DNA of 63,941 bases, filler included. It is 15 parts of 15 records of this genome, joined end to end, with 100 filler letters (N's around TTAATTAATTAA, not from the genome) between each part and the next. Parts side by side here need not be neighbours in the genome. Positions count along the whole stretch, not along the records: positions 34,652 to 38,000 come from SRR15195285_6635; 14 more parts are not named here. One strand, 5' to 3'. This document shows positions 4,942 to 38,428 of the stretch, piece after piece; position 1 is the stretch's first letter; each line of letters begins with the position of its first letter. A program made the position numbers and the translations under genes. The notes beneath the pieces were generated by a model. That model worked only from the letters and a program-made list of their open reading frames with translations. It made no database searches and had not been told where the DNA came from.

Positions 4942-5041
4942 NNNNNNNNNNNNNNNNNNNNNNNNNNNNNNNNNNNNNNNNNNNNTTAATTAATTAANNN
5001 NNNNNNNNNNNNNNNNNNNNNNNNNNNNNNNNNNNNNNNNN
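4942..5041. other. Artificial contig-joining spacer N44-TTAATTAATTAA-N44 (first of 14)
   Basis: The same 100-nt spacer with six-frame stops occurs at 4942-5041, 9248-9347, 13894-13993, 23483-23582, 27320-27419, 31386-31485, 34552-34651, 38001-38100, 41920-42019, 45150-45249, 49054-49153, 52727-52826, 56725-56824 and 60451-60550. Confidence 0.99.
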
Positions 5042-17100: not shown

Positions 17101-20100
17101 CAATCATGCCAGGCAGTCCAACCACGCGTAACAGCCACCTGCTGGTGAAGCCCTTGAGGCCGAAACACTCACTGGGACCGAGAGCGCGGAATAATAGTCC
17201 CCACAGGTCCATTACTGGCTTCAAAGCCGCAATCACATCCTGCTCACAGTACCAACACAGGCGTGTCAGATGAAATGACATGAAATGCGTGTGTAATGAC
17301 TTCCACTTTACGAACAGGACAGGCCAGGCCATGGCAAGACAAGACTCACGCCAAACAGTCCCGGGTACTGGAAGTCTAACACGTCGCCGAGCTGACTGGT
17401 GATCTGCGAGTAGGTGATCAAGATGCGCCCAGGTTGGAATGCGCAGCGCGCCAAATGTTTCAGCGAGAAGGCTTTCCACAGCGATGCCATGATCGCACCA
17501 CCAACAAAGATGGCCAAAAGAATACCAACCAGGACCAGCATGGACTGCTTTGTATAGCCTGTGCCCTCGCACGGTTCACACTCGCGTGATGGTGACATTC
17601 CGTAGCCGTTTACGCAACCGTCGCAGACCTGTCCCTCGTAGCCGTGTGCACACACGCCTGGCACAGCATTGGCCGGGCATCGTTTCCGAGCCAAGTCCAT
17701 GTCGTTGTGACACCGAAATACAATCAGTGCACCTTCGTCAACCTCAAAGTCTGCTTGTGCTAATCTGCGCCTGCTGGCCTGTAGTTGTAACTGTGGAATT
17801 GTGAACCCCGCACTGACCACAGGATCTGCTCCGTCCTTGCACATGACACACCCTTCACCGGTAATATCTGTTGGACAGGATGCACAGCTCTGTCCAGTGG
17901 CGGCAATCGCAGCAGACTGTGACCCTATTTGGCGGGAATAATAGTCAGGGTCGAATGATCCATGAAAACACACGACGTTTGCTTTCGTCGCATTGAAATA
18001 GGTTTGCTCGCAACCACATTGTTGAGATTGTGGACCAGCACTAAGTTTACGTGTTCTATGTACACCACAGTCTTCGCAGCGCTGGTACGATTCGTCCGCA
18101 ACGAGCGTCGAAGGGCAGGGAAGACACACGCCAAACGACGAGTGATTGTTACCATTGCAGCTATCACAGCCATCTTGATCGGAATTAGGTCCAGTGCCTG
18201 CTGGGCAAAGTATGCAGTCGATGCCATCTTCGTTGAATGTCTTCTCAGGGCAGTGGCTGCATGAAAGAGAGTACTGGGCGTACGTACACGCTTCGCCACC
18301 TTTGCATGGATGCTCTGTACAGGCACCACGCAGCTGACCATTTCGTGAGCCGGGACTGATCATGATGCTTTCTCCGTCAATATACGGCTCGTATGTTGTA
18401 TCTTTGGCTTTAATTACGTCTGGCTTTTCGATCCACATGGCGTCGGCGCAGCGAGGGCACAGTCTCGTCGTGACACCGTCCTCGTCCTCGGTTGTTATAC
18501 TATTGCTTGGCAACGTAGAATTTTCAACAAACGTTGATGACTCTAGTGTCAGCACCGCGCCAGCTCCTAGGATCGGACTAATCAGATGATCAGACACGTG
18601 GTTCTTTTCAAGCTGCGATGTGGTGAGCGTTATAATGCTGTTGAAAGATATGATTGCTCCTGCCACAGTCTCTCCACTACCCATGTTCGTTCCGAATGCA
18701 GTATTTTCGGCGGCAACCGATGAGCTGTCAGATATGAAAAGTGCACCAGCTGTGGCTCTGGCACTGGCTCCAGCGTTTGATATAAAGCTTGAGTGGAATA
18801 TGGAGGCAGAGCTTCTGGCAATGAGCAAGGCTCCAGCAGCTTCACCCCTATTGTCAGAAAACATTGTGTTGACAATTGTACCAACCGCTCCCTTGATGAG
18901 AGACACAGCAGCACTCGCAGGCTGATAGGAATTTACGTTTCCGGCGTCGTTTGCCCGCACGACACTATTAGCAAGATGCAGCGTTGACTCAGACACAACG
19001 AGCGCAGCGGCTCCTTGGTTGTTGGCGAACCGACTGTGCAAAATTTCAGCGCTGGACCCGTCGTCACAAACAATCCCTGAACCAGAAACAATTTCGGGAA
19101 AGTGGATTTCGCCGAGACGCATTGGCGGGGGCTCGGTGTAAGAAGTAACTTCCACACTGTTGTCTTCAACCCGCACATGCCATAAAAATATTGTCGAACT
19201 CCGCGCATACAGTGCTGCAGAACCAAGCGTCTGCACGCTGTTGTCCAGCATTTCCGTGAACGATAGTGATACATTCGAGTCTCGAGCGTATAGTGCTCCT
19301 GCGCCTACAGCTTTCTGTGTGTTTCCACTGAACCTTGAGTACGTAATGTTAAGCGTACAGCGTACGCATGACAACCCAGCCGAATGGCCAAGACCACCTC
19401 CTCCTTCCGCTTCGCCGCCATCTATGTCGACATTCCGAAGGAAAACAGATGCGTCGGTCACCGTATGCTCTGCCCGAATTGACCTCGAATCAAGCGTAGT
19501 AGCACACGGAAACCCACAAATGTAAGGCTTCAGGAGTTCACACTCTGAGTCCTTCCACGCAGAGTTCCAGTTGTGCGTTTCTACGGTTGTATCTACGTCG
19601 ACGCAATTCTCTGTGCCCCAATCATCGTTACAGCTCGTACCAGACACGCCACAGTCGGACTTGCACTCCTCTACGGGCACTCCACAACCCCAGGAATCTG
19701 GCTGCAGTGCCCTCCAAGGCCAAAACGTGGAATTCTGTATTACGCCACCCCCCACCCACGACCAACCAGGATTCTGGCTATTGCGACTACACTGTTGTGT
19801 AACCACGTCACAAGTGGCACGTTCCCCGGTCATTGTGATCGATTCATCCTTCGGTACGTCAGCAAAGGTCCCGTCGCATCCCATTTCGTAGTCCAGATCG
19901 TTCAAACCAATCCAGGCCCCGCTCCTTTCCTCGTGAACCTCATGAATATTTACGAGCTCTTCGAAGTTCAAAAGAGAAGCGAGGTGGCCTCCTCGTGATA
20001 CACACTCTGCTTCAGCTTCGTGCCATGTCTTCCTTTCCCGATCGTACTCAACGTTGCAGTGCGCGGCTGTGTCTGTGTCGCTGCAAGGATACCCGCAAAA

Positions 20101-23100
20101 GAATGCGCGGAGCTCATCACAAGGTGTATCATGAAGCATGCCGTGCTCTGGACCGAGGGTGTGGTCTTTCCAAGCACCAACACAATCCTCCTGCAAAGTA
20201 CCAAGAGACTGGCAGTCTCTCAAAAAGCACCTCTCAATCTCTTTGCACCCGAAGCTGTCAGGTTGTCCTTCTGCAAATGCAGAGAAATCTGAAGTGACTC
20301 CATCGGACCAAGAAAACGCTGACGAGTCACAGGCTGCCTCGGAGCTCCTGTCATTCAATCCAATCCAAGCTGACGTCGCTGCAGGAACTATGTCTCTGAA
20401 AAAAAAGTAAGGATGACGGGGCCCGCCAGGCCAATGCACCGCCGCTAGATGTCCTCCAAGAGAAGCGCAGTCTGCCTCTGCATCTAACCAAGTTCGCTTG
20501 ATTGGCACATAGTCGTAGCGGCAGTCTGCAGAACCTGCACCTAACATGTGCTGGAGTGATGGTCCAACGATCAGAACGTTTCTTTGATTGGCCAGCGCGT
20601 CAGATAAGCTGGAACGATCTGTTCTTCCATTGGTCGGGAAGGAGCGCCAGTGATCATGCATGCCGTTGAATGCAACGCATAGCGGGGGCACTGGCACCGG
20701 TGTGGCGACACCAGTACACGTCTGTGGTACTTCGAATGCTACACCCGTACAGGACTCGGCTCCAGGAGTCTGGTCATGCGTACATCCGGACGGACAGTCG
20801 CCCGTAGCGGAGAAGCTGCACTCAGGCAAAAAAGCCGCTGTGTAGCTGCATCCATCTGGACACACCGAGGACTCATCAGTCGACGGGTCCAGGTCACAAG
20901 ACGGTGCATGCGTCACAACAGATGCCCTACTCATCAAAATAGCACAATCATAGACGCAGCTGGATGCTTCCATGACAACTGCACTTGGGCTGTAGTTCAT
21001 GGCCATTGGATCTGTGCATCCTGATGGAAGTGTGACGCCACCATCCCGCGCGTTGGTCAAGCAAGTGAATATGGCGGCTGAATCAGGAATACCGTCAGCC
21101 GGTCGATCTGGTGATGCCAAAGACGTGACAAATTCATCTAGGCATCCGTCTATCAGCGAGCAGGCAGCCCATTCTTGCGGACATAGCGCTGATGCAGACG
21201 AGGATGTAACGGTTGGAATACATGAAGAAGCACCGGGTGGACAGGTTGGACAATCGGAGCAGACCAGACATTCGGTGGCGCCAGTGTCCGCAGCAAATTT
21301 ACCTGATGGGCACAGGGTACATGGAGTTGCCGCATTAGAGTCGTCGTCGAAGGACCCAGGCGGACACGGCTCACACGAAGATCCATCGGACGAGTAGGAA
21401 CCATAATCGCAGGTCTCGCTGCATGTTGTGGAGCCTGCTGTGCTAAAGGTACCTTCCGCACAATTTACGCAGGGAGTCGATGAGAGTGAGTCATGGTCAA
21501 CGAATCCGGCATCACACGAAATGCAGGCCGTTGCGCCAGAGGCAGAGTACTTGCCCTCAGCGCAGGCACTGCACGAAGACTGGTCATCCTCACTTGTGAA
21601 AGTCCCGGCGGCACAGAGCGTGCACCGTCCAGTTGTGCCATCCACAAAATGTCCAGCTGTACACAGTGTTGGCACGCAGCACTCGCTTGCTGCACTGGCA
21701 CCAATCGGAATCAACGTGGGCAGTTGAACATTGTTGTCGGTCAGGGTAGTGCCACAGAGTAACGAATCGCCAGTGCACATGTCAGGCGTCTGAGTGGCGG
21801 AACCATAGCAGGCAGCAGTTTCTGATGCTTCACCTGTGCATGACGCAGGGATCTCTGTAGCGTTACCAGTGCATTCCTCGGCGCCAACGGTACCAATATC
21901 TGTGCATCCTGCTGGGCATCCGGTGAAAGTTTCGCTGTCTGCGAAAGAGCAAGTGGGTGTTTCTGCGGCTGTAAATGCGCAGCCTGCCGGGCAGCCAGTT
22001 GCAGGATTCAAGTCCTCGCCGCCCTCAGTAGCGTCATCGAGATCGCACGTTGGCACGAAGGTTTGTTCGAATGTGCAGCCAGCCGGGCACTCACCCGTCT
22101 CGTCAGTGTCTGGATCTGTGTCGCAAGTTGGAGTTGATGCAGGTGTGCTGGTACACTCACTAGGGCAGTCAGAGCACGAATTTGACAGCAGCCACGTTGC
22201 ACAGGAGTCTTCGCAACACAGATCTTGCACTGGTGCAGTATAGATGCACTTCTGAGCTGTGCACGCGTCACCATTGCTGTCTATATCTAGTGCAGCGTCG
22301 CAATCAGCCTGTGATGCCAAGGCACAACTGCCCGGGCTCCCACTGCCAGGGGCTGCCGTCAATACACAGTCCAGACTGTTGGGGCACTCTGTCGCAGCAG
22401 CAGCAGGTGGGTCGCAAGCAATTGATATATCCTTCGCTGTACAAGAGCGCTCAGGCCCTGATGGCAGCAATATGCTAGCAGCATCCTTCCGTAAGGTTGT
22501 TCCAGTTTCACATGCCACCGTAGAGCAAGATAGCTTCTCTGGAATTTGGAAAACGGCGTTCTTCATGGTACAAAACGCTGCCTGTTCGGAATTATGCCCG
22601 CAAAAGTCAATCTGAATCGGTTCAAAATTCAGAAATCCAGGCACAGGAATGGGTTCTTGTGACCATGTGCCGTCAGGATGTGTTACTCCTATTCCCAGGT
22701 TATCCCCTCCGCCGCCCTCGGCATGGACCGCAGCGAAAAAGTAGTACTTTGAACTGTCCAATGTAATCGGCTGTGAAGTTTGCTCCGAAAACTTGTCCCA
22801 CTGTCGCGGGTCTGTCCAGCCAGGGACGTGCGCAATCTCACGTGCTTCTTCTTCTGTCTCGCCAAACCAAAGGTGACTCCAGTCATCACCGTAGATGTGG
22901 AAAATATGTTCACCTGCTTGCGACGGACTGAACCAGCCAAATAGCCTTGAGCCGTAGTTGTCGCCGGTATCAACGGGAATCTCGGCAAATTCAGTAATGA
23001 AATCGCGCGAATCAGGTTGATCGGGAAACGAGGCCAATCCCCACAGCCAATCTGTTTTCATTGGCTGCGCTCCAGGAGGTGGCTTTGTCCATCTGTCCCA

Positions 23101-23481
23101 TGTAATGTAGGATCTGTCGGCGGCCCCGCCGGCGTGGTCGCCATAGCTGTTTCCGCAGTAGCACTCGTCCATTCCCTGCAGACCCATGTACGAAAAGCCC
23201 TGACAAAGATCTTCGCATGTTGTAATTGACGCGCTTGAGCCCATGGAGTGTCGAGAACCAGACAAGTCTCGTGCCAGGTCGAATGCTTCCTGGTCTGGGT
23301 AGAACCCGATGAAGACTCTTTCTTTGCAATCATCGACCGATTTCGACGCAGGGTAGGAAACACTCCCAGGTGGACAGGGCGTGCATGCTGCTGCACCACT
23401 GGACGCAAAGGTGCTTTCGGGGCAAGGGGTGCAAGGGACATTCATAGCTGGCTGGATTCCCGAGCCATCAGGGTTGTAAAA
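14186..23481 (-). CDS. Giant multi-pass receptor (5' truncated, >2950 aa): GCC2/3-type Cys repeats, WSC, PA14, 2 C-type lectins, beta-helix, about 9 TM, TIR, degenerate TIR, EF-hand pair. Exons 23481-17350, 17239-16996, 16908-16541, 16461-16270, 16105-14186
   Basis: Four GT-AG introns (17240-17349, 16909-16995, 16462-16540, 16106-16269) join five ORF pieces in frame, giving FQYPGLFG|DVIAAL, FFC(Y)PTICII, YLYW|ESLDMLRK and HVFI|VITTAI. Domain motifs are given in the findings. Confidence 0.88.
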
Positions 23482-27998: not shown

Positions 27999-29996
27999 TC
28001 AGCCGAAGCGCATGACCTGGGTCGGCGGGATGTAGAGCTCTTGGTTGACCTGCGAGTTCAGGTACTGGTGGAGCAACGCCTTCAGCTCCATGTTCTGCTG
28101 TTGTAGATTGCCTGTGTCCCCGATGAGGTCGCGCCGACCCTGCAGCTCTTCGTTGTACTTCTGCATGGCCTTCAGAAGAGCGTTGTAGACGCGGATGATC
28201 TTCTCTGGCACAATACCCTTCATCTGCTCCCAGTACGCCATCGCTTCCGTACGAGCGCGTTCCTCCGCCTCTGCCTTCGCTGCACCGCCCGCGGCCTTTG
28301 CCGTCTTGGCAGTTCGGCCGAGTGTGCCCTGTTCCTCAACGAAACGCTTGAGCCGCGCCATTGTGTCGTTCGGATGCACCAACACATCCTGCCCGCTCTC
28401 CTGGTCCACACCTGCTTTGAGGAATGTGTAAAGGCGCTCGACGTCCTCCGAGTTGGAAATTGAGAGCGCGCGGAAGATTGAATCGACCTGCAAGAGACGC
28501 TGCTCCTCCGGCTTGTATTGGTCCATTTCTTGACGCAGCCGGTCCTCGACGAGAAAGGCGCCCTCCTGGCAGACGAGCTCGAGCATGTTCTTGATGTTAT
28601 CGCTCTCATCCTTTGTCACCTCGCTGATCAACGCCTTGCGCTCTTTCGCCTGGTCCACTTCCGCAATCTCTTCCTCTTCCTCCACAGGTTCGTCGTCCAG
28701 CTGGAGGGTGCCAGTCAGTGTGCCCTCAGTCGGCGGGTGCCACTCCCACCCGAGCTGCTGCTGGTGAATGATCTCATCTGCCTGTAGCACCTTGCTCGCA
28801 AGCTCCTGCACGAGCTCCTGGTTCATCTCCCACACATCGGTGTACTTCTTCTTGTCCGCAGACTGGAAGTGGCGGAACTTGTTCTGGAGTTCCTTGTACT
28901 GTTCGGTGATCCGCTTGTAATCGTCGGTCAGCTCCTTGTTTTCGCTCCGGAAGCGCGCGTCGTCCTTACGGTAGCGCGCCTCGAGTGTGCTAAGCGTCTC
29001 TTTGAGTTTCGCCTGCCGCTTCTTGTGCTGCTGCAGGAGGTTAGTGTTCTCATCGTCGCGGGTGGTGAGCACGCGATAGTTGTACTCGAGCTTCTCGGTG
29101 TTGAGGAGGTACGTGGCCTTCATCTCCTCAAGCTGCTGCTGCAAGCTTTGCACCTCAGTCTGCAGGGTAATCTTCAGTATATTCAGGTCCTCCGCGTCCT
29201 GCGTCTTGAGCTGTTCCAACTGCTGCGCATGGTCGTCTGCTCGCTGCTGCCTCTTCTCCATGAACGTTGCCTCCATCTGCTGCCTCTTGCGCGACAGCGC
29301 CTCCATCTCCTCCCGGTTCGCATCGCGCAGCTCTTCGCGCTCATGCTCGAACGTCGTCGAGATTTCCTCGAGCTCGTCCTCATATGCCTTGCGCAGCTCG
29401 ATGAACTGGATCGACATGCGGCGCAGCAGTTGGTCGATGTCCTCGGCCTGTTTCTTCAGCGCCTTGACGTACTCCTCGTCCTTCGCCTTGAGCTCGTTCT
29501 GGAACTCATTCTTGAGCCGATCCTTGGCGGCGATCACGCGGTCGCACGCCTCCTTTTGCTGGTTCATCTCGGCCAGCAGGTCCTGCGGGATCTCCTTCGC
29601 AATCACGGCGTTCCACTTCATCGCGATGGCGGCGTTACGCTTCGCGCTGTTCTCCGCCTCCGTCAGGAGCTTGTGGCGGCGCTCCTGGCGGCGCTCCTCC
29701 TCCGCGATGCGCCGCTTGTTCTCCCGGTCGTCCGACTGCACGCGCACGCTCGTCACGTGCTCGATCCCCGCCGTCTTGATGCGGTCCAGGCGGTGGTTCG
29801 ACTCCATAATCTGGCTCTTCCCCTTGACAAACTCCCGCCGCTCCCTCTCCCGCCGCTTCCTCTCCACCACCTTCGGGTCCTCCGTGTCGGTGTTCATCGC
29901 GTCAATCCGCGCCTGGATCCTCGCACGTCGCGCGTTGATGCGCTCCTCGCGGTCCGAGGAGTTCACCGAGGGCCCCTCGTCCATGTAGGAGGCCAT
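27999..29996 (-). CDS. DRC1: Dynein regulatory complex subunit 1 (CCDC164), intronless
   Basis: GPSVNSSDREERINARRARI, ELKAKDEEYVKALKKQAEDID, MKATYLLNTEKLEYNYRVL, YKELQNKFRHF, C-terminal QQNMELKALLHQYLNSQVNQELYIPPT. Confidence 0.95.
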   Translation of the reverse strand: MASYMDEGPSVNSSDREERINARRARIQARIDAMNTDTEDPKVVERKRRERERREFVKGKSQIMESNHRLDRIKTAGIEHVTSVRVQSDDRENKRRIAEEERRQERRHKLLTEAENSAKRNAAIAMKWNAVIAKEIPQDLLAEMNQQKEACDRVIAAKDRLKNEFQNELKAKDEEYVKALKKQAEDIDQLLRRMSIQFIELRKAYEDELEEISTTFEHEREELRDANREEMEALSRKRQQMEATFMEKRQQRADDHAQQLEQLKTQDAEDLNILKITLQTEVQSLQQQLEEMKATYLLNTEKLEYNYRVLTTRDDENTNLLQQHKKRQAKLKETLSTLEARYRKDDARFRSENKELTDDYKRITEQYKELQNKFRHFQSADKKKYTDVWEMNQELVQELASKVLQADEIIHQQQLGWEWHPPTEGTLTGTLQLDDEPVEEEEEIAEVDQAKERKALISEVTKDESDNIKNMLELVCQEGAFLVEDRLRQEMDQYKPEEQRLLQVDSIFRALSISNSEDVERLYTFLKAGVDQESGQDVLVHPNDTMARLKRFVEEQGTLGRTAKTAKAAGGAAKAEAEERARTEAMAYWEQMKGIVPEKIIRVYNALLKAMQKYNEELQGRRDLIGDTGNLQQQNMELKALLHQYLNSQVNQELYIPPTQVMRFG

Positions 29997-30569
29997 CGTC
30001 GCCAGCCCCAGCCCCGTACCCAGCCCCAGCCCAAACACAGCCAACGGGAATATTCGTATATATTCCCAGAAAATGTATATACAAATTTAGAGCCACTTAT
30101 GAGAAATGAGTACGAGAATGTAGTGGGGAATTCCGACGTCCGTTGGCTTGGGACGGTTTCGAGGCGGATGATTGGGTACGTTGTACCTTCGGTTCTTCTA
30201 AAGGGGAAATCACTGAGGAATGCGGCGGACACGCGCGGCCGGATGAGTAGTGGAATTTAGGATTGCTATAATAGTGGAATTAGCAGATGGGATTGGGAGT
30301 CGTTACGTCGAAATGCTTATGGGTAGTTCGGTGGAGTCACACGGGAGAATAATCTCCAAATCGACGAAACACACAGTAAATGTTTCTTATATCATATATA
30401 TACAGAGAGGCTCACCGTTGTTCTGCACAATTGTAGAAGCCAAACTTCCAGACTCACGTGTAGGAACTTCCTACACTGCAGCGGCCACTGCCTGAAAATG
30501 GTGATCTTGAGCGCCGGAAGATACTGAAAAACATAGATCAATGACAGTCGACCGGACGGTGACACGAAA

Positions 30570-34386: not shown

Positions 34387-34787
34387 CTCTGCTGCACCAC
34401 GCGTGCGTCTCAAACGACGTGCGGTCGCCGCGCCCTCACGGCCTCCTCCCGCAGCCCATCTCGGCCGCCCGCCCTAACCACAACTAACCCCTCTCCCGCA
34501 TGCCGTAGCGCCCTCACCAGTAGTGTGCATCGCCACTACGCAGCGGGGGCGNNNNNNNNNNNNNNNNNNNNNNNNNNNNNNNNNNNNNNNNNNNNTTAAT
34601 TAATTAANNNNNNNNNNNNNNNNNNNNNNNNNNNNNNNNNNNNNNNNNNNNTGGGAGCTTAACGGAGGGTTGGAGGTGGTTTGGAAGGTGGCTAGTTCTG
34701 GGGTTTACCGTAGTCGTGGTGGGGCGGTGTGTCGGTGAGTGTGCGGAGGGAGGGCGGCCACGCAAGCTTAGCTCTTTAAGCGCGGAG

Positions 34788-37700
34788 ATGCCCGCCGAGG
34801 GGACTCCGCCTGCGCCCCCACCGGTAACGCCGGTGAAGCTGGGCGAGCCGGTAGAGGCGGTCACGGAGTCGCCGAGGACGCCGAATTCCAAGTTGGCTGA
34901 TGAGATCTCGCAAGCGAAAGCGAAGCAGTTGATCAAGAAGGTGAAGTTGGCGCATCAAAATCGCCATGAGGTCGAGGAGGAGAGGCAGCACCATCAGGAG
35001 AACAAGGAGTTCGCCAAGCACGACGAAAACGCCGCGTTCGGCTCGCGCGCCGTGGGCGGCTCCAGACCAAACGACGAGGTGCTGTACGGGAAGGCCGAGT
35101 CAACTGACTACCTGACTCCGGACACGCCGCAAGAAGAGTCCTTCCAGCGTACGTTCACCCCAGCCATGCGGACCAGGCGCCGACTCTACATCTGGGGGCT
35201 GTACTTGTGCCTGGGTGTCGCGGTGGCAGCGGAGATCATCGTCATTCTCGGCCTGTGCGAGGTGATCCAGAAGGTTCGCGTGAAAGCAACGAACACCCAA
35301 CTGGAGAGCAACGAACTGCTGATGGCGTGGGTGGTGTGGACCGGCTCGAGCATGGCGCTGTGCTTGGTCGCGTGCGTCCTAGTGTTGTGGCAACCTGCAG
35401 CGGCCTCGTCGGGTATCCCAGGCCTCATCGCGTACCTGAATGGGGTCACTCCGGTCGGGGGCACCTCGCCCCTGACGGGGAAGAAGACGGGCTTCCTGTC
35501 CTTTCAAACCCTAATTGCGAAGTCGGTTGGGATGACTCTCTCCATTCCCTCCGGCCTATGCCTGGGGCCGGAAGGACCGATCATTCATATCGGAGCGCTG
35601 CTGGCGCACCACACCACGGCCTTTTTCGAGACTCTTTCGCACAAGCTACTTCCCGAACGGCTCCACTTCTCTGTCCAGTCTGGAGAGGGCCGCGATTTCC
35701 TTGCGACCGGTGCAGCGGTGGGCATCTGCGTGGCTTTCCGCGCCCCGCTGGCCGGCTGCTTGTTTGTCGTCGAGGAAGCCTCGTCGTTCTTCACGACGGA
35801 GCACCTGGAGTACACCTTCTTCGCGACGGTCGTTGCCTACATGGTCGCGCTTGCCCTGGCGCGGCCCGAGGATAACTTCACAAAGTTCAAGCAGGCCACG
35901 GGCTACTTCTGCACGCAGTTCGATTGGTTTGACATGTAAGCCTCGCATGCAGCCTGTCACCTGCCGACTTGCACATCAGAGTCAACCACCGCAGGTTGCT
36001 GTTGTACACACATGCAGATGATGTACTCATCGCGCGCTGCTGCATCGCAGGATACTCTTCGTTGTGGTCGCGGTGGTAGGCGGGATGGCAGGGGCTTTGT
36101 TCAACCATATCGTCGAGTCGCTAAACCACTTGCGGGCGCACCATATCAACGCACACATGTGGAGGCGTGTAGCGGAGGTGGTGATTTTGGTCTTGGTAAC
36201 AGGCACGGTCGCCGTTTTCCTTCCGTACTGGTTCGACTGCGAGACTCCGACACGCTCAATGCTCATGGAGGACTCGATCGGATGCCTGTCCGAAGAGGAC
36301 GCCCACATGATTTCACAGGGTTCGATATCTCATCCAGTTTTGACTAGCTTGCTTGCAAATTGCAGCGGGGATGGCACAGCCGAGATCAGCGAGAAACTTT
36401 TAAAATTCCGAGCGCCTGACAGCGCGTGGAGCGAGGATGGACACGAGTGGAAGGACTTTGTCTGGGTGGACAACGCCGATGAGAACCCGACTATCCAGCT
36501 GCACTACCAGCACAGCTATAATTGTCCCGACAGGAACGACTACAACGCGATGTCAATGCTGTGGCTGAACGGTGGGGTGAAAGGCGTCAAGGTGCTCCTG
36601 CAGCGCGGATTCCCTCACATGTTGAGCTGGCAAGTGCTCCTCGTCTTCTTCGCGGTCTATTTCGTATTCGCCGCGTACACCTCTGGTGTCGCCGTTCCTG
36701 CGGGCCTGATTGTCCCCCACCTGCTCATCGGCGGCTCTTACGGCCGCGCGATCGGCTTGCTCGGCATTTACCAGAAGAAAGCGATGTGCTCGGCGCTCAT
36801 AGACCTGGAAAACAAGGCTGCCACCGGTGGCTTAAACCTGAACGCCGCGGACTACGGCGGAGAAGACTGGATGTTCGACGACACTTACTTTTGGTCGACT
36901 GTGTATCGTTGGGCCGGACGAGACTGCCATTTGCCTGACCCAGGAATGTATGCTGTGGTTGGCTGCGCTGCATTCTTGAGCGGCTCGGGGCGCATTACCA
37001 TGATGCTTGCCACAGTGATTATCGAGCTCACCGATGATGCCAGCCTGATCGGCCCTGTTGGTGTTGCGAGCATCATCGCTATGATTGTGGGCAACCTGTT
37101 CAATCACGGTCTCTACCATGGCCTGATCCCAGTGATGAACATGCCGTTCCTCAATGAGCAGCCTGCAGACGTGATGAATCTCATCAGCGTCTCAGATATC
37201 ATGACACGCGACGTAATCTGCCTGCCAAAGATGGCGCCACCGGCTCTTGTTGACGAGATTATCGCCAAGCACGACAGTGGGGAGATGGCACACAACGCGT
37301 TCCCCGTGATTGACAAATGGGACCCTAAAAAGCCGGACCAGCTGAGCGGCAAAAAGCTGCGCGGCATCATCTCGATACAGAACCTGCGATTAGCTGCAAA
37401 CTGTGAGAAAACAGTGAATTCTGATACCAACAGTCGCAGATCTCGCTTCGTGAAAGGCACCCAGTTGAACATCAAGTTTAGCCCCGTGCAACTCCCTGGC
37501 GCTGCATTAGTGAGCTCAGACTTTGAGGGGTTGACTGAAGAGCATCACTCGATCGACCGAGATCTACAGGATGAACTGCTGTCCTGGCTGATCCACGTGC
37601 CACTTTTGCACGACCTGCGCAACGCGGTGCTCAAACGTATGCTTGCCCGGATGCACGTCGGCGACGTGAAGCCGCACGAGGACGTCATTCACGTTGGCGA

Positions 37701-38000
37701 GCCTGGTCACGCGATGTACTTCTTGGAATCTGGCTCTGCCGAGGCGCTCGTGCGAGAAAAAGTAGTGAAGACGTACGGCAGGGGCGAGTTCTTTGGTGAG
37801 TTGGCGTTAATTACGGACGAGCCTCGTAAGGCAACTGTCCGCGCTGGCAAGGACGGCGCGCGCGTGTGGAGGCTGGAGAAGCTAGTGTTTCAGGACACCC
37901 TGGACATGGACCGAGAGCTCAAGCTGTTGAACTTTGCCGACAGGTCACCCATCACTGTGGTGCCGCACACGAAAGTCGCCCGCGCATTCGGCATCTTCCG
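34788..38000 (+). CDS. CLC chloride/proton antiporter (CLC-6/7-like) with CBS1, cNMP-binding domain and start of CBS2; 3' truncated. Exons 34788-35935, 36051-38000
   Basis: AASSGIPG, GPEGPIIH, FRAPLAGCLFVVEE, VPAGLIVP, GLYH; CBS HNAFPV...LRGII; cNMP GEFFGELALITDEPRKATV. Intron 35936-36050 joins FD-M-ILFVV in frame. Confidence 0.92.
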
Positions 38001-38428
38001 NNNNNNNNNNNNNNNNNNNNNNNNNNNNNNNNNNNNNNNNNNNNTTAATTAATTAANNNNNNNNNNNNNNNNNNNNNNNNNNNNNNNNNNNNNNNNNNNN
38101 TTTTGGGGTTTACGGGCCTAAAAATCAATGTACAGGTGTCCGTACCGGTACTGTGTACTGGAGCACAGCGCGATGTGAGGCGGCGCAGGGCAGCTTTTAT
38201 ACAGCCCCAACCAAGTGTCAGTAGACACGGGAGGTTTGCCCCACATGACCTGAGGCAGCCTCTAACGGTCAGTAACGGGGCCAATTTGTCGGTGGGTTAG
38301 AAACCCCCTTTTCTCTACTACTACTGTCACCCCAACTAGCTCGGCACTGAATAGAGGTCACTCAACGCTCCGTTGGTTGCATGTTGCGCAAAGCTCTAGA
38401 GTCTAGAAATCCAAAAACTCAAAATCAA

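Follow-up and report, generated by a model that had tools for sequence, protein, structure and literature searches.

A CLC-family exchanger gene encoding a predicted cyclic-nucleotide-binding domain nested between its two CBS domains

Gene Structure and Order of Domains

The DNA analyzed here (63,941 bases, called the window) is composed of 15 separate segments (3.1–9.5 kb, 52–64% G+C) joined by runs of N around TTAATTAATTAA. One of these segments carries a gene of the CLC family, in which the coding sequence for a cyclic-nucleotide-binding domain (CNBD) is nested between those for two CBS domains, designated CBS1 and CBS2. The architecture CLC membrane domain, CBS1, CNBD and CBS2 is real, a statement we make with near certainty. 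The features of the gene are the following:

34652..38000, + strand, contig with the CLC gene, 3349 bases, with N runs and TTAATTAATTAA spacers at both ends
34788..35935, + strand, exon 1, with the ATG at 34788; codes for a conserved N-terminal cytosolic stretch (FGSRAVGG...DYL.PDT), followed by the first half of the CLC membrane domain
35409..35411, + strand, selectivity-filter serine (second S of SSGIP, 35406-35420), aligned with P160 of Arabidopsis CLCa (AtCLCa)
35571..35573, + strand, gating glutamate (GPEGP, 35565-35579), aligned with AtCLCa E203
35775..35777, + strand, proton glutamate (second E of VVEE, 35766-35777), aligned with AtCLCa E270; exchanger-type signature
35936..36050, + strand, intron of 115 nucleotides with GT..AG ends, based on the sequence, an RNA joint and homologues
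36051..37152, + strand, exon 2, second half of the CLC membrane domain, ending in helix R and the post-R segment (ELTDDASLIGP...NHGLYHGLIPVMNMPFL)
37189..37398, + strand, CBS1, starting with VSDIMTRDV and ending with ...LRGIISIQNLRLAA; based on alignment and model
37399..37563, + strand, variable linker joining CBS1 and the CNBD; conservation is poor and model confidence is low in places
37564..37902, + strand, CNBD with N-terminal helices, beta-roll, cassette and alpha-B; span according to the fold model
37792..37845, + strand, phosphate-binding cassette FGELALITDEPRKATVRA, with Glu at 37798-37800 and Arg at 37825-37827
37918..38000, + strand, start of CBS2 (LKLLNFADRSPITVVPHTKVARAFGIF; LKLLNFADRSP...), cut at the contig end

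The two long frames on the + strand are two exons of one CLC gene. Exon 1 ends in phase 2 (AT, followed by gtaagc), position 35935 lying directly before GTAAGC, and exon 2 begins at 36051 directly after CAG. In an RNA contig from the oligo-dT run X16, position 35935 is followed directly by 36051, the stretch left out having GT..AG ends; the shorter side of this joint comprises only 22 letters, and full-length homologues are continuous across the exon join (...DWFDM-(I/V/L)LFV...). The frame of exon 2 is open to the last base of the contig, and CBS2 is cut by the assembly, not by a stop codon. A preliminary description of this stretch had recognized the CLC gene; the intron that splits it is a correction to that description. 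The range proposed there (37190..38000) contains the elements where they had been placed, including the CBS1 motifs from VSDIMTRDV onward and the start of CBS2 directly after the CNBD, but its end at 38000 is that of the contig and not of the frame.

RNA contigs from four libraries of four studies (36577-37512, 37486-37823, 37495-37876, and 37586-37917) cover CBS1, the linker and the CNBD, and none of them contains a joint that skips the domain. The coverage by RNA contigs excludes 37918-37962 and parts of exon 1. A contig from run X17 extends beyond 38000, and its additional letters continue CBS2 as in P0153, a database protein with a complete C-terminus and 99% identity to the window protein. 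DNA may be present in contigs from RNA libraries. The spliced joint in X16 shows that mRNA of the gene is present in at least one library. At the DNA level, the region 36900-38001 was found in 19 of 23 listed public runs belonging to 15 studies, mostly of seawater or marine metagenomes. The preliminary description had named splicing-out or mis-assembly of the CNBD segment as ways in which it might be wrong, and its presence as DNA in 15 studies and in RNA contigs free of a skipping joint speaks against both. A further RNA contig of X17 with 2884 nucleotides matched only the conserved CLC stretches 35565-35590 and 36550-36590, which are separated in it by 907 other letters; this transcript belongs to a related CLC of a different organism present in the sample.

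The CBS Pair

The Pfam CBS model matched CBS1 (residues 380-444 of the exon 2 translation) with 18.6 bits, which is under the cut-off of 24. The assignment of CBS1 made in the preliminary description thus falls short by this profile and holds by two other lines, namely alignment to residues 618-684 of CLC-7 and a predicted beta-alpha-beta-beta-alpha fold. The HN.FPV motif of CBS1 is common to CBS1 of CLC-7. CBS2, complete in P0153, aligns end to end with residues 737-794 of CLC-7, including the TRKD motif. As judged by alignment and fold for CBS1 and by P0153 for CBS2, the protein has an intact CBS pair (Bateman module) of the CLC-7 kind.

The CLC Membrane Domain

The Pfam model Voltage_CLC (PF00654, cut-off 24.8) matched the translations of exon 1 with 108.3 bits (E 6.2e-31) and of exon 2 with 90.8 bits (E 1.3e-25); the two exons combined cover positions 4-148 and 164-345 of the 346 profile positions. 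By sequence and by fold, the membrane domain is closest to AtCLCa, CLC-7, and CLC-6. SSGIP and GPEGP align with GPGIP and GKEGP of AtCLCa, and the serine and the two glutamates listed above fall on P160, E203, and E270, which we take to be the nitrate/chloride selectivity site, the gating glutamate and the proton glutamate of AtCLCa. CLC channels carry a valine at the position of the proton glutamate. Because serine, gating glutamate and proton glutamate occupy these three positions, the signature is that of an exchanger-type, chloride-preferring CLC, in agreement with the preliminary description, which had reported the same three residues in place and proposed a Cl-/H+ exchanger. According to its sequence, the protein is a CLC family member of the exchanger type, from the CLC-6/7/plant CLCa branch and with a chloride-type serine.

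Two long loops are present in the membrane domain at 36220-36600 and 36780-36930, where 347 residues span 182 profile positions. The cysteines of these loops and the motifs CETPTRSM, DSIGCLSEED, HYQHSY.C, and YFWSTVYRW recur across the CLC subfamily. The two loops are probably luminal or extracellular and disulfide-bearing.

The Nested Cyclic-Nucleotide-Binding Domain

The Pfam model cNMP_binding (PF00027, cut-off 27.5) matched residues 539-618 of the exon 2 translation (37666-37905) with 57.1 bits (E 1.8e-15), covering profile positions 4-87 of 89, and the fold model described below extends the domain to 37564-37902. A full domain of this type between CBS1 and CBS2 and an intact phosphate-binding cassette, both claimed in the preliminary description, were thus recovered. 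The cassette pattern FGELAL....PRKAT, which can be aligned with PKG cassettes, is kept in 14 of 14 homologues with identities of 50–99%. Over the 18 residues around the cassette, each of the 14 homologues with a CNBD has 14-18 identical residues, the glutamate and R-K-A-T being constant. Compared with the homologue P0156 (63% identical), 64 of 115 residues are identical in the CNBD and 36 of 65 in CBS1, as against 13 of 40 in the linker between them. By this measure the CNBD is conserved about as well as CBS1, in the manner of a working protein domain.

The closest solved relatives by sequence are Plasmodium PKG domains (35-39 bits each) and the regulatory subunits of yeast and mammalian PKA (PKA-R). 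After the proline, R-K-A-T follows in the cassette and matches neither the PKA-type R-A-A nor R-T, and the best single structure matches include cGMP-dependent kinases with cassettes R-S-A-T or R-T-A-S. Since R-K-A-T differs from both patterns, while cGMP kinases themselves show R-S-A-T or R-T-A-S, the ligand is not readable from the cassette motif. An assignment to cAMP or cGMP from the cassette was dropped for this reason, and with it the cAMP specificity that the preliminary description had derived from a missing 'RT'. Profile, cassette and fold identify the inserted domain as a member of the CNBD family; binding of a ligand is predicted.

For the fold, an AlphaFold2 model of P0153 was made with an alignment of 47 sequences (mean pLDDT 81.2, pTM 0.66). 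Its membrane part superimposed on CLC-7 with a Z score of 23.3 and a root-mean-square deviation (rmsd) of 2.2 Å over 220 residues. Most blocks of 10 residues in the CNBD had pLDDT values of 88-96. The modeled CNBD (residues ~466-610 of P0153) superimposed on the cGMP-bound CNB-A domain of PKG II with Z 17.5 and rmsd 1.4 Å over 121 residues, on Plasmodium PKG with Z 18.4 and 1.8 Å over 133 residues and on PKA RI with Z 17.3 and 2.0 Å over 124 residues; it also matched the domain folds of HCN2 and SthK. Its secondary structure comprises N-terminal helices, an eight-stranded beta-roll, a short cassette helix and alpha-B (residues 599-605 of P0153), followed by ~12 residues up to CBS2. Superposition of the whole chain on CLC structures gave rmsd values of 13-15 Å, and the relative placement of the domains in the model is not reliable. 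A search of the ESM Atlas returned only generic CLC clusters (score 0.77).

Homologues with the Same Architecture

Fourteen database proteins from five source collections share the architecture of the window protein: 11 of the 56 hits of a word-indexed search combine PF00654, PF00027, and PF00571, and three further proteins are fragments with CNBD and CBS2. In a HMMER scan of 1.84 billion representatives, a Pfam scan of the 20 best hits yielded five clusters with a CNBD followed by CBS2. Besides P0153, the homologues include P0003 (88–89% identical to the window protein), P0154 and P0155 (~80%) and four full-length proteins of 1119-1279 residues (63–65%). Members of the subfamily are present in NCBI and JGI protein sets under uninformative names such as 'CBS domain-containing protein'. 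No description of a CLC with a CNBD was found in searches of ~8.4 million open papers and preprints. As far as could be seen, the architecture is therefore already in databases and uncharacterized, which agrees with the statement in the preliminary description that no characterized CLC of this kind was known.

Origin of the Insert and a Sister Form with a GAF Domain

To describe the insert in the subfamily, spacing was counted between the anchors H(H/N)AFP in CBS1 and DRSP in CBS2, both of which were present in 32 of 202 proteins:

No insert, 15 proteins, 44-60 residues between the anchors
Intermediate, 3 proteins, 75-87 residues
CNBD forms including the window protein, 13 proteins, 192-217 residues
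GAF form (P0015), 1 protein, 206 residues

A maximum-likelihood tree was calculated from 37 rows and 567 columns, with the insert columns removed and the root placed at the midpoint. The 12 CNBD rows formed one group (SH-aLRT 98) with P0015 as its sister (95), and both together were nested among members without insert, e.g., P0005, P0162/P0163, and P0166. Because the CNBD rows form one group with insert-less forms outside, we read the tree as a single acquisition of the CNBD; a loss in the insert-less forms is formally possible, since the root is only a midpoint root.

P0015 (561 residues) comes from outside the window. In its extra segment, located at the same site between CBS1 and CBS2 at which the CNBD is inserted, the Pfam GAF model matched with 69.5 bits. 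The best solved relatives of this GAF domain are the cAMP-binding GAF domains of Anabaena CyaB2 (1ykd), the cGMP-binding GAF-A of PDE5 (78.5 bits, one domain), GAF-B of PDE2A and PDE10A. In the alignment with PDE5 it keeps N-K ... F-x3-D-E, the NKFDE motif, which is described as conserved in most characterized GAF domains that bind cyclic nucleotide monophosphates (cNMPs) and as setting them apart from other GAF domains. Among the 120 matches listed in a search over lengths of 308-982 residues, P0015 was the only one to pair PF00654 with GAF. Since two unrelated cNMP-sensor folds occur at one site in sister lineages, we infer from the sequences that cyclic-nucleotide control may be the trait under selection, and this coincidence of two folds is the strongest indirect argument for such a function. 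The parallel GAF form also suggests that the position between CBS1 and CBS2 serves sensors in general as a docking point. The insert-less subfamily member P0007 (1057 residues, outside the window) has EF-hand matches after CBS2 that are weak (20 bits, under the cut-off); it may represent a third, Ca2+-type sensor variant.

Source Organism and Other Segments of the Window

The TTAATTAATTAA spacers (n = 14) are located at 4986, 9292, 13938, 23527, 27364, 31430, 34596, 38045, 41964, 45194, 49098, 52771, 56769, and 60495. Because the window is a concatenation of separate contigs, genes on either side of a spacer are not genomic neighbors. On the other segments, long frames code for a gamma-tubulin complex component, a nexin-dynein regulatory complex (NYD-SP28) protein, ankyrin, kelch and TPR proteins and an MFS transporter, and the eukaryotic proteins encoded there point to a flagellated eukaryote as the source. 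Three further observations concern these segments:

27999-30044, - strand, homologue of NYD-SP28 (nexin-dynein regulatory complex), indicating a motile flagellum; AT skew of the contig -0.33
14186-16036, - strand, frame of 616 residues with a TIR domain (30 bits) and EF-hands, an unusual pairing in a protist protein
17308-23445, - strand, open frame of 2045 residues with matches to C-type lectin, ephrin-receptor-like and right-handed beta-helix models, probably a large surface protein

P0003 is the sole named relative. Its source label (eukprot COSAG02...) is applied in two papers to Picozoa sp. COSAG02, a co-assembled single-cell genome. Co-assemblies of single cells can include contaminants, a caveat that applies to this label. 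Given the identity of 88–89% to P0003, the host of the gene is likely a picozoan or a close relative.

Proposed Mechanism and Alternative Explanations

The N-terminus of the CNBD is tied to CBS1 through the variable linker, and its C-terminus is almost directly joined to CBS2. The explanation that we favor, with moderate confidence and on the basis of sequence and model, is that the CNBD confers cyclic-nucleotide control of Cl-/H+ exchange via the Bateman module. cAMP or cGMP would bind to the cassette via the conserved glutamate and arginine, and the cassette and the alpha-B hinge helix would then shift, as in other CNBDs. This shift would re-pack the arrangement of CBS1 and CBS2, because alpha-B lies ~12 residues from the first CBS2 strand and the N-terminus of the domain hangs from CBS1. 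The change would reach the transport domain by the route that adenine nucleotides take in CLC-3/4/5, CLC-6, CLC-7, and AtCLCa, and this route from the CBS domains to the transport domain is part of the general knowledge on the CLC family. ATP-bound structures of CLC-7, CLC-6, and AtCLCa have been solved and effects of ATP on CLC exchangers described. Cl-/H+ exchange would in this way come under the control of a second messenger, most likely on an endomembrane compartment; a role in the acidification of food vacuoles, as suggested in the preliminary description, was not supported. The wider proposition, that this protist CLC clade as a whole is directly gated by second messengers through a sensor in the Bateman module, with a CNBD lineage and a sister with a cNMP-type GAF at the same site, we consider evenly balanced.

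Several points weigh against cyclic-nucleotide control. The window copy lacks most of CBS2 owing to the contig end, and the complete picture relies on P0153 and other database proteins. A lysine follows the cassette arginine, which was seen in none of the aligned solved CNBDs, and the long alpha-C lid helix expected after alpha-B was not predicted in the model of P0153; as judged from the model, the base could be capped by another part of the protein. The helix-R motif ELTDDASLIGP (37024-37056) has no tyrosine, where in the aligned segment CLC-7 has one and AtCLCa none, so that details of coupling may differ. A single protein cluster represents the GAF form, and the tree was the result of a quick search without bootstraps in which several outgroup branches are long.

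The missing lid and the unusual lysine would also suit a CNBD-homology module that does not bind nucleotides, as in CNNM proteins and KCNH channels, and that serves a structural or protein-interaction role. A precedent for a CBS pair beside a non-binding CNBD-like domain exists in CNNM proteins. We nevertheless regard this explanation as unlikely. FGE...PRKAT is kept in all 14 homologues over the whole range of 50–99% identity. Non-binding CNBD-homology domains typically lose the Gly-Glu and the Arg of the cassette. In addition, the domain scored 57 bits with a Pfam model of true CNBDs and superimposed within 1.4-2.0 Å on ligand-bound PKG and PKA domains, and the insertion site holds a cNMP-type GAF in the sister lineage.

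With an R-K-A-T cassette and no lid in the model, the base-recognition side is undefined, and the CNBD might bind another small molecule, e.g., a non-canonical cyclic nucleotide or an effector as in some CRP/FNR-type domains, in which case the exchanger would report on a metabolite. This appears still less probable, because the glutamate and arginine that contact the ribose-phosphate are what is conserved for 3',5'-cyclic phosphates, the closest domains by sequence and fold are those of eukaryotic PKG and PKA and not CRP/FNR effector domains, and the GAF of the sister form bears the NKFDE motif of cNMP-binding GAF domains. That the architecture is an artefact, either a chimeric CLC/CNBD assembly or a segment spliced out of the mRNA, is very improbable: although the contig is only 3.3 kb long and cut inside the gene, and RNA-library contigs can hold DNA, one unbroken frame leads from the membrane domain via CBS1 and the CNBD to the start of CBS2, the same order occurs in 14 independently predicted proteins from five source collections, 15 studies have runs that contain the DNA, RNA contigs span 37486-37876 and 37586-37917 with none skipping the CNBD and one library holding spliced mRNA of the gene, and conservation across the CNBD is protein-like.

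If cyclic-nucleotide control via the Bateman module is correct, the window protein would represent the first class of CLC proteins under the control of cAMP or cGMP and a natural ligand switch whose sensor is wired at one end into CBS1 and at the other into CBS2; such a geometry of coupling is not known from other CNBD proteins. It is a matter of debate how the cytoplasmic CBS domains of CLC proteins signal to the transport pathway, and the ligands known for these domains, ATP, ADP, and AMP, are constantly present and hard to manipulate. A CLC with a switchable ligand sensor in the Bateman module would give a direct experimental handle on CBS coupling. It would also link cyclic-nucleotide signaling to Cl-/H+ exchange, and so probably to organelle pH and chloride, in poorly known marine heterotrophs, and it would add a CLC case to the few CNBD-bearing proteins that are transporters and not channels.

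Comparison with Known Systems

The endolysosomal and vacuolar exchangers CLC-7, CLC-6, and AtCLCa are the best matches in sequence and fold for the membrane domain and both CBS domains, and they have the gating and proton glutamates in common with the window protein; CLC-7 also shares HN.FPV in CBS1 and TRKD in CBS2. These exchangers are regulated via their CBS pair, which is ATP-bound in the solved structures. Between CBS1 and CBS2 they have a mere spacer, whereas the window protein has a folded CNBD of ~115 residues there. Further differences are the proline of the nitrate type in AtCLCa at the position of the serine, the tyrosine in the helix-R motif of CLC-7, and the two long cysteine-bearing loops in the membrane domain of the window protein.

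The CNNM/CorC proteins, mediators of Mg2+ transport composed of a DUF21 domain, a CBS pair and a CNBD-homology domain, resemble the window protein as transporters with a Bateman module and a CNBD-like fold in the cytoplasmic part. Their DUF21 membrane domain is unrelated to Voltage_CLC, so that the window protein is not a member of this family, and their CNBD-like domain follows the CBS pair, whereas the CNBD studied here is nested within it. The CNBD-like domain of CNNM/CorC proteins is reported not to bind cyclic nucleotides; the cassette of the window protein, in contrast, is intact.

HCN and CNG channels, MloK1/SthK and SLC9C1 are likewise membrane transport proteins that directly bear a canonical CNBD. 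In these proteins, the CNBD hangs from the last transmembrane helix via an N-terminal C-linker and has a free alpha-C lid. The CNBD of the window protein is tied to CBS domains at both ends and a long alpha-C is not predicted, and because of this the coupling path must differ from that of these channels and transporters. With its CNBD located between CBS1 and CBS2, the window protein is not a member of these groups, yet by analogy it may work like them.

Closest to the inserted domain by sequence and structure are PKA-R and PKG (Z 17-18), with which it has the cassette pattern FGE.AL....PR.AT in common. These proteins have tandem domains, whereas the window protein has a single CNBD, with a lysine after the arginine and without a kinase context. 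P0015, finally, belongs to the same CLC subfamily, with 46% overall identity to the window protein in alignment A1, in which the inserts were aligned too. The insertion site is the same and the insert is of similar size (206 versus 192-217 residues between the anchors), but it consists of a GAF domain of the cNMP-binding type in P0015 and of a CNBD in the window protein.

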